Source: Escherichia coli | GTDB lineage: Bacteria; Pseudomonadota; Gammaproteobacteria; Enterobacterales; Enterobacteriaceae | Assembly: GCF_003334405.1 (NCBI RefSeq) | Contig: NZ_QOWM01000015.1 | Strand: one strand, 5' to 3' | Length of the DNA stretch: 64,000 nucleotides | Shown here: piece by piece, positions 60,431 through 60,469 of the stretch | How the letters are laid out: each line of letters starts with the position of its first letter | How positions within the stretch are numbered: position 1 is the first letter of the stretch | Translations under genes and position numbers: made by a program | Notes under the pieces: model-generated | Database searches by the model: none | Seen by the model: the letters and a program-made list of their open reading frames with translations, nothing else | What the model was told of the DNA's origin: nothing

Positions 60431-60469
60431 TTGGGACCCTCATGTTTTGGACCCTTTGTGTTGGGTCCC
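60431..60469. promoter_or_regulatory. three TTGGGACCC-like direct/inverted repeats between intA and ssrA (candidate integrase arm or operator sites)
   Basis: TTGGGACCC (60431-60439), TTTGGACCC (60446-60454), TTGGGTCCC (60461-60469) at ~15-bp spacing. Confidence 0.4.

Follow-up and report, generated by a model that had tools for sequence, protein, structure and literature searches.

The window analyzed here, i.e., the whole stretch of 64 kb (64,000 nucleotides), is part of the Escherichia coli chromosome and contains the tmRNA gene ssrA (60595–60957, minus strand; identified by ARAGORN, Rfam score 295.8 bits) and, beyond it, smpB. Here, ssrA is the integration target of a genomic island. The integrase gene int of this island (59199–60428) is located on the minus strand as well, and the 166-bp intergenic region between both genes contains the att core, a terminator and a set of repeated sites. 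The terminator, an intrinsic hairpin (60531–60560, minus strand), is island-borne and lies downstream of ssrA, between the core and the repeated sites.

The ends of the island were defined by comparison with the empty attB site of strain G6/7, in which the backbone beside ypjA continues straight into ssrA. This places the attL core at 60593–60608 (ATTGGTGGAGCTGGCG), made up of the final 14 nt of ssrA and 2 further nt, and the attR core at 40150–40164 (ATTGGTGG-GCTGGCG), in which the ssrA 3′ end is present as a displaced copy. The core common to attL and attR reads ATTGGTGG(A)GCTGGCG, and the island spans 40165–60592, corresponding to ~20.4 kb. When the window was searched with a 25-mer of the ssrA 3′ end, allowing up to three mismatches, ssrA itself was the only match; local alignment revealed the attR core, which the empty site confirmed. 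Compared to the ssrA 3′ end (TGGTGGAGCTGGCG), it carries a 1-nt deletion (TGGTGG-GCTGGCG), and the same form is present at the attR of K-12. Due to this deletion the two cores are not identical, and the efficiency of excision may be lower. An attP junction was sought in the record of phage phi467, whose integrase is 86% identical, but is absent there; this record represents a prophage with a neighboring island.

Right after the integrase gene, at 55581–58922 and 51509–54528, a large serine recombinase of 520 amino acids and two ParB-like proteins are encoded, followed by NACHT, RelA/SpoT and relaxase proteins. The other island genes include one for a DUF6387 protein. Furthermore, a protein of 68 amino acids (41575–41781, plus strand) belongs to the AlpA/Vis family of excisionases and transcriptional regulators (PHROG “excisionase and transcriptional regulator”, E = 7.6e-11); it displays 36% identity to K-12 AlpA and 37% to P4 Vis and represents the candidate recombination directionality factor (RDF). 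Judged by these gene assignments, the island is a mobilizable one with two unrelated recombinases and defense-type cargo.

The integrase is a P4-type tyrosine integrase of 409 amino acids with Arm-DNA-bind_3, Phage_int_M and Phage_integrase domains. Its N-domain (residues 8–95) matches Pfam PF13356, Arm-DNA-bind_3, with E = 5.7e-23 and is followed by the central and catalytic domains. The original prediction had called the gene intA, a name that was not borne out: the protein is a paralogue of K-12 IntA with 49% identity over 401 amino acids and a different arm-site motif, and it is 35% identical to P4 Int. By its sequence, it is an integrase of the P4 family present at the CP4-57 site and represents a lineage separate from K-12 intA.

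Two possible start codons upstream of ATG 60428, namely ATG 60443 and GTG 60572, would place the repeats within coding sequence. Neither of them is conserved. In every relative examined, the RefSeq start is the counterpart of ATG 60428. The in-frame ATG 60443 (−15) is seen in this window only and is a by-product of the repeat, and GTG 60572 has the tmRNA 3′ end on one side and the terminator hairpin on the other. Among the relatives, 1-nt indels occur immediately 5′ of the int ATG, the open frame upstream of this ATG varies from 1 to 61 codons, and in three of them an in-frame stop is located 1–3 codons upstream. Since upstream start codons are not conserved, as is evident from the indels, the nearby stops and the RefSeq starts, the repeats are non-coding and the start is assigned to 60428, as originally proposed; a start at 60572 is not supported.

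Three 9-mers, two direct and one inverted, had been placed at 60431–60469 by the original prediction, and the read-out of the sequence returned them exactly there: TTGGGACCC (60431–60439), TTTGGACCC (60446–60454) and TTGGGTCCC (60461–60469), all between the int ATG at 60428 and the tmRNA 3′ end at 60595. The reverse complement of TTGGGACCC is found at 60463–60471. A repeat search describes the region as a 15-bp tandem pair, CATGTTTGGGACCCT (60426–60440) and CATGTTTTGGACCCT (60441–60455), together with an inverted arm, GGGTCCCAAAAAGGG (60463–60477). On the scale of the window the 9-mer is not over-represented, as five matches with at most one mismatch were observed in comparison to 9.8 ± 3.4 in shuffled sequences. 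Four of these five, which amount to three independent sites, are located inside 41 bp, and at the shuffle density only ~0.006 further matches would be expected in the same 41 bp.

The copies align to an 11-bp unit, GGGTCCCAAAA, and the array consists of four sites instead of three, the original prediction having overlooked a fourth copy. Site C (GGGTCCCAAAC, 60429–60439, minus strand) is the first 9-mer and adjoins the int ATG. It spans a Shine-Dalgarno-like GAGGG, and relatives keep GAGGGTCCCAAA(A)ATG at this position. Site B (GGGTCCAAAAC, 60444–60454, minus strand) is the second 9-mer, lies 15 bp start-to-start from C and is kept as AGGGTCC in relatives. The third 9-mer belongs to site A (GGGTCCCAAAA, 60463–60473, plus strand), which is inverted with respect to B and C, and 12 bp from A the additional site A′ is present (GGGTGCCATAA, 60475–60485, plus strand; TTATGGCACCC in int sense).

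A position weight matrix was built from the relatives alone, excluding the window, and used to scan the ~128,000 positions of the 64-kb window. The best four positions were 60473–60486, 60461–60474, 60443–60456 and 60428–60441. The four sites of the array score between 17.3 and 18.7 bits (18.7 for A′ and for A, 17.4 for B and 17.3 for C), and the next best position in the window reaches 11.4 bits. Relative to the int ATG the array occupies −1 to −57. Its sites (60429–60485) are 107–164 bp away from the attL core, A′ being the nearest at 107 bp, and their motif is unlike the core sequence.

A scan of genome contigs yielded the 26 closest loci, which come from ~20 genera including Pluralibacter, Photorhabdus, Serratia, Hafnia, Yersinia and Dickeya and encode integrases that are 79–92% identical, with one outlier (locus L031, 62%). 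In most of these loci the layout is TTATGGCACCC-N5-GGGACCC-N8-GGGTCC-N8-GGGTCCC-AAA(A)-ATG. In E. coli variants with a leader DNA of 75–87% identity, the GGACCC/GGGTCC cores are kept and the spacers drift. Relatives at ~50% identity have motifs of their own (GGTATACG, GGTACACG, AGGTACC and GGTGCTAAAA) in an unchanged arrangement. Of 71 related integrase loci, 68 contain at least three copies of an 8-mer within 70 bp upstream of the ATG, in comparison to 9 of 355 shuffled sequences; the usual pattern across the 71 loci is a same-strand pair 12 bp apart with inverted copies next to it. The repeat array is a real, non-random and conserved feature. Furthermore, the sites accompany the integrase into islands of unrelated cargo, encoding for example a UvrD-helicase, DUF3644 or DUF4760.

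The sequence of sites A, B and C follows the N-domain of the integrase. In four of the 26 loci, a new motif has replaced the usual one at all three sites A, B and C, namely GGNTACTAAAA in L027 and L028, AGGGAGNAAA in L029 and GGTGCAAAA in L031, and these are exactly the loci with diverged integrase residues 1–60 (53–67% identity versus 73–93%, mostly 87–93%, in relatives with a conserved GGGTCC). Outside these residues, the integrase is 83–94% identical in L027–L029, whereas L031 is diverged along its whole length. Locus L032 has an intermediate N-domain (63–77%) and retains the KGGKKNWYFRY strand as well as GGGTCC in B and C. The same correspondence of sites and N-domain is seen in E. coli MLI104K2, which is described below. 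Site A′ alone stays constant when the N-domain changes; it may be read by another protein or may not have been part of the tract that was exchanged. As the sites directly adjoin the N-domain codons, a single recombination tract could carry the sites together with codons 1–60, and the co-variation could partly reflect physical linkage. The self-consistent set of repeats within each lineage is the stronger argument.

On the other side of the island, a pair of boxes, TGGTCCTAAAA and AGGAACCATAA (40228–40249, plus strand), is present with an 11-bp period and in the same orientation as A and A′, 63 bp from the attR core. As matches to the matrix they are weak, with 7.9 and 4.0 bits (ranks 18 and 95 of ~128,000 positions). 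The pair is kept in four other islands, five in all, and the AT-rich flanks diverge. These boxes probably represent the distal arm sites, degenerate in sequence. The far arm also contains a conserved inverted repeat, AGTTCAACTCCCTATTGGTAACTGAACT (40317–40344), the AGTTCA and TGAACT arms of which are kept in four other islands, and the interior of which changes.

The arrangement on both arms is similar to the one annotated for the phage satellite P4. The P4 GenBank record lists “attP arm sequence repeats”, which on the int side are a tandem of CATTGGGGGCAT and AATTGGGGGCAT with a 12-bp period and, at the int start, ATGTGCCCCCAA as an inverted copy. This tandem is 112 bp from the core, in comparison to 107 bp in the window, and the tandem pair of the other arm is 53 bp from the core, in comparison to 63 bp. 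Both elements encode an integrase of the family with an Arm-DNA-bind_3 N-domain and a small AlpA/Vis-type protein; in P4, Vis acts as the RDF. In the P4 record (locus L097, 3914–3926), the annotated int ATG 3926 lies inside the inverted arm repeat, and the alignment to the integrase of the window begins at the second ATG, 3914; this ambiguity of the start codon resembles that of 60443 versus 60428. The differences concern the sequences and the context. The integrases differ by the degree of identity given above, the P4 motif is TTGGGGGCAT instead of GGGTCCCAAAA, P4 has one inverted copy where the window has two (B and C), and it targets a leucine tRNA gene instead of ssrA. Finally, the window harbors a 20-kb mobilizable island with relaxase and defense-type genes instead of a phage satellite, and its arm sites are predicted.

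The cryptic prophage CP4-57 of E. coli K-12 (intA, alpA) shares with the island the ssrA target, the core and the backbone junction beside ypjA. Its near arm contains TTTTAGGCCCA and TTGATAGGCCCA followed by GTTGGGCCTAAA, its far arm TTTTAGGACCAA and CAATGGGACCAAAA at ~60 bp from the core, and this site architecture on both arms, with the CP4-57 motif RGGMCCA, corresponds to that of the window. Its AlpA is the 36% identical homologue mentioned above. In contrast, its integrase is the 49% identical paralogue, its near-arm motif is TAGGCCCA, and its cargo is entirely different.

It is highly probable that the repeats are arm-type sites for the P4-family tyrosine integrase which the island itself encodes, and they are situated in the int-proximal att arm, which is attL in the integrated state. 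The analysis directly shows the presence and conservation of the sites, the co-variation with the N-domain, the ends of the island and the equivalence with the P4 layout. The array is the expected attP/attL arm-site set of a P4-family integrase and reveals neither a new kind of element nor a new mechanism.

The original prediction had offered integrase arm-type sites or AlpA/Xis sites. The first part is supported by the arm domain, conservation, co-variation and P4 geometry, whereas the second is disfavored for A, B and C, as is seen from E. coli MLI104K2. This strain carries the same island with the serine recombinase, the DUF6387 protein and an identical AlpA-like protein (WP_000795662.1), and its far arm is identical to that of the window over the 248 nt compared. 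Nevertheless, its integrase N-domain and its sites A, B and C are of the L027 type, unlike those of the window, and the site sequence does not track the identity of the RDF. It is therefore unlikely that the repeats are sites of the AlpA/Vis-type excisionase of the island, which would use them to bend the arm and/or to control the transcription of int. Such a protein is encoded in the island, and according to PMC2951348 the binding of TorI to attL covers the intS promoter, and Vis lowers int expression. The constancy of A′ despite the changing N-domain, as well as its resemblance to the far-arm box TTATGGTTCC, would allow A′ itself to be an RDF site. On the contrary, the sites follow the integrase into islands of unrelated cargo, and the equivalent repeats of P4 are annotated as arm repeats.

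A second, separate repeat family speaks against the excisionase at the array as well. GTCTAY in int sense (minus strand) is present at 60567–60562, 60524–60519 and 60514–60509, accompanied by ATCTAC at 60494–60489, and a further copy is found at 40380–40375. In the near arm, the family is situated between the att core and the arm sites, flanking the terminator; three exact copies occur in 109 bp, in comparison to a background density of 3.1e-4 per bp per strand. In loci L015 and L009, all copies read GTTCAC, the corresponding place is occupied by (A/G)TCCG boxes in P4 and CP4-57, and the GTCTAY boxes are kept in MLI104K2 with its identical AlpA-like protein. The family occupies the place between core and int in which the Vis boxes of P4 are reportedly located. 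As a hypothesis only, the GTCTAY repeats are regarded as candidate RDF boxes.

Another explanation acts on the level of RNA. Here, a hairpin of the int leader, formed by A:B inside A′:C, would hide the ribosome-binding site and the start codon and thereby control translation. The leader RNA has a folding energy of −27.9 kcal/mol (z = −2.28), with GAGGG inside the outer helix, which extends as far as position −3 of the AUG. Across 16 relatives 84% of the cells are paired, including four pairs with changes on both sides. However, any inverted DNA-binding repeat yields such covariation automatically. The outer helix A′:C is broken in L027–L029, because A′ is unchanged there, and the explanation fails for families with inverted copies 27–44 nt upstream of the ATG. 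Furthermore, the 12-bp same-strand pair, the far-arm pair and the layout of P4 and CP4-57 are left unexplained. As the origin of the repeats the hairpin is very unlikely; in addition to the arm sites, the predicted fold (A:B inside A′:C) could add a translational layer.

That the repeats are a functionless 15-bp tandem duplication with a chance palindrome is highly improbable: the tandem copies of the window are 93% identical, including the duplicated CATG, but the doubling of CATG is unique to the window, the sites are conserved over ~20 genera while the spacers vary, and lineage-specific motifs occur in an unchanged architecture. That the repeats serve other island proteins, for example the large serine recombinase or one of the ParB-like proteins whose genes adjoin int, is so improbable as to be almost negligible: genes for the serine recombinase and two ParB-family proteins are indeed nearby, but the same sites and integrase are present in islands without these genes (strains A16, ETEC-2264 and S1-KEN-05-A). 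For A, B and C, the integrase is favored over the AlpA-like protein, the serine recombinase and the ParB proteins due to MLI104K2 and to the sites travelling with the integrase.

For the arm-type sites of the integrase, the following mechanism is proposed. The heterobivalent integrase would dock with its N-terminal arm-binding domain (residues ~8–95) on the four GGGTCCCAAAA-like sites, on A′ and A in one orientation and on B and C in the other. The core-binding and catalytic domains would act at a distance of ~110 bp, on the crossover core within the ssrA 3′ end, and the weaker far-arm pair, ~63 bp from its core, would complete an attP-type scaffold. For integration into ssrA and for excision, the intervening DNA would be shaped by the AlpA-like protein and probably also by bending proteins of the host. 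Binding by the integrase and the role of the sites in recombination are inferred, as is autoregulation of int.

A known example of such an integrase is that of phage lambda, which is heterobivalent as well and whose arm sites P′1–P′3 form a cluster in the int-proximal arm away from the core. In contrast to the array described here, the P′ sites of lambda all point in the same direction, none of them overlaps the int start, and the arm-binding domain is of another family. For lambda, the rule is that both arms must match the integrase.

Since the array fills −1 to −57 and site C covers the ribosome-binding region, repression of int by its own product is expected. Occupancy by the integrase would shut down int expression, and the array probably also provides negative autoregulation, in analogy to P4 Int and KplE1 IntS. 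In KplE1, attL overlaps the int promoter (“STI” arrangement) and IntS represses its own gene through the P′ arm sites (Panis et al., 2010, PMC2951348). The same paper states that P4 Int binds DNA directly and thereby represses its own gene (PMC2951348). KplE1 and the window have in common that a tRNA-type gene and int are co-oriented with attL between them and that P′ arm-type sites are located in the int leader; negative autoregulation is likewise predicted for the int gene of the window. On the contrary, IntS belongs to another integrase family and targets argW, and its promoter, transcription start and repression have been mapped experimentally (PMC2951348), whereas the autoregulation in the window is inferred.

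A sigma-70 consensus promoter was not found within 60300–60700. An extended −10-like sequence, TGCTAGAAT (minus strand, 60500–60492), is not conserved in relatives. A sigma-54 promoter was considered as well, as TGGCAC-N5-TTGG over A′ and A resembles the −24/−12 consensus, and was rejected: the −12 element has GG rather than GC and reads ATGG in many relatives. A box at 60498–60507 (int sense GAGAATTGCT, plus strand AGCAATTCTC) does not vary among any of the close relatives, even where the arm sites have changed. This box is part of no recognizable sigma-70 promoter and may be a host-factor or promoter element.

The comparison of MLI104K2 with the window also allows a more tentative suggestion. 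The far-arm pair is unchanged in MLI104K2 despite the different N-domain, and the best far site matches both motif dialects at 9 of 11 positions. It is possible, although rather doubtful, that the N-domain and the sites A, B and C form an exchangeable specificity cassette, which is swapped between ssrA islands independently of cargo, RDF, A′ and distal arm. In loci L002 (strain 300709), L006 (CFSAN027346) and L043/L034 (MGYG-HGUT-00110), the integrase is not located beside ssrA: another island intervenes (with an anti-phage dCTP deaminase or DUF4760) or a second one follows, resulting in a tandem array with hybrid cores, CCCCAGCCCACCA. Such tandem arrays of islands are a plausible substrate for the exchange of N-domain and arm-site cassettes.

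With the present analysis, the start codon of int and the exact ends (40165–60592) of a 20-kb mobilizable, defense-type island at ssrA are fixed, and the map of the sites can be used for mutation when excision of the island is studied. If hybrids of the MLI104K2 type are mobile, the distal pair and A′ would be read by a factor other than the N-domain or would tolerate several N-domain dialects. If the cassette proves to be true, this would be a departure from the both-arms rule of lambda and would provide natural orthogonal pairs of N-domains and arm sites. For the P4-family integrases of the Enterobacterales, a single arm-site architecture with lineage-specific motifs emerges, which may be of use for the annotation of att sites and for the choice of orthogonal integrase/att pairs.
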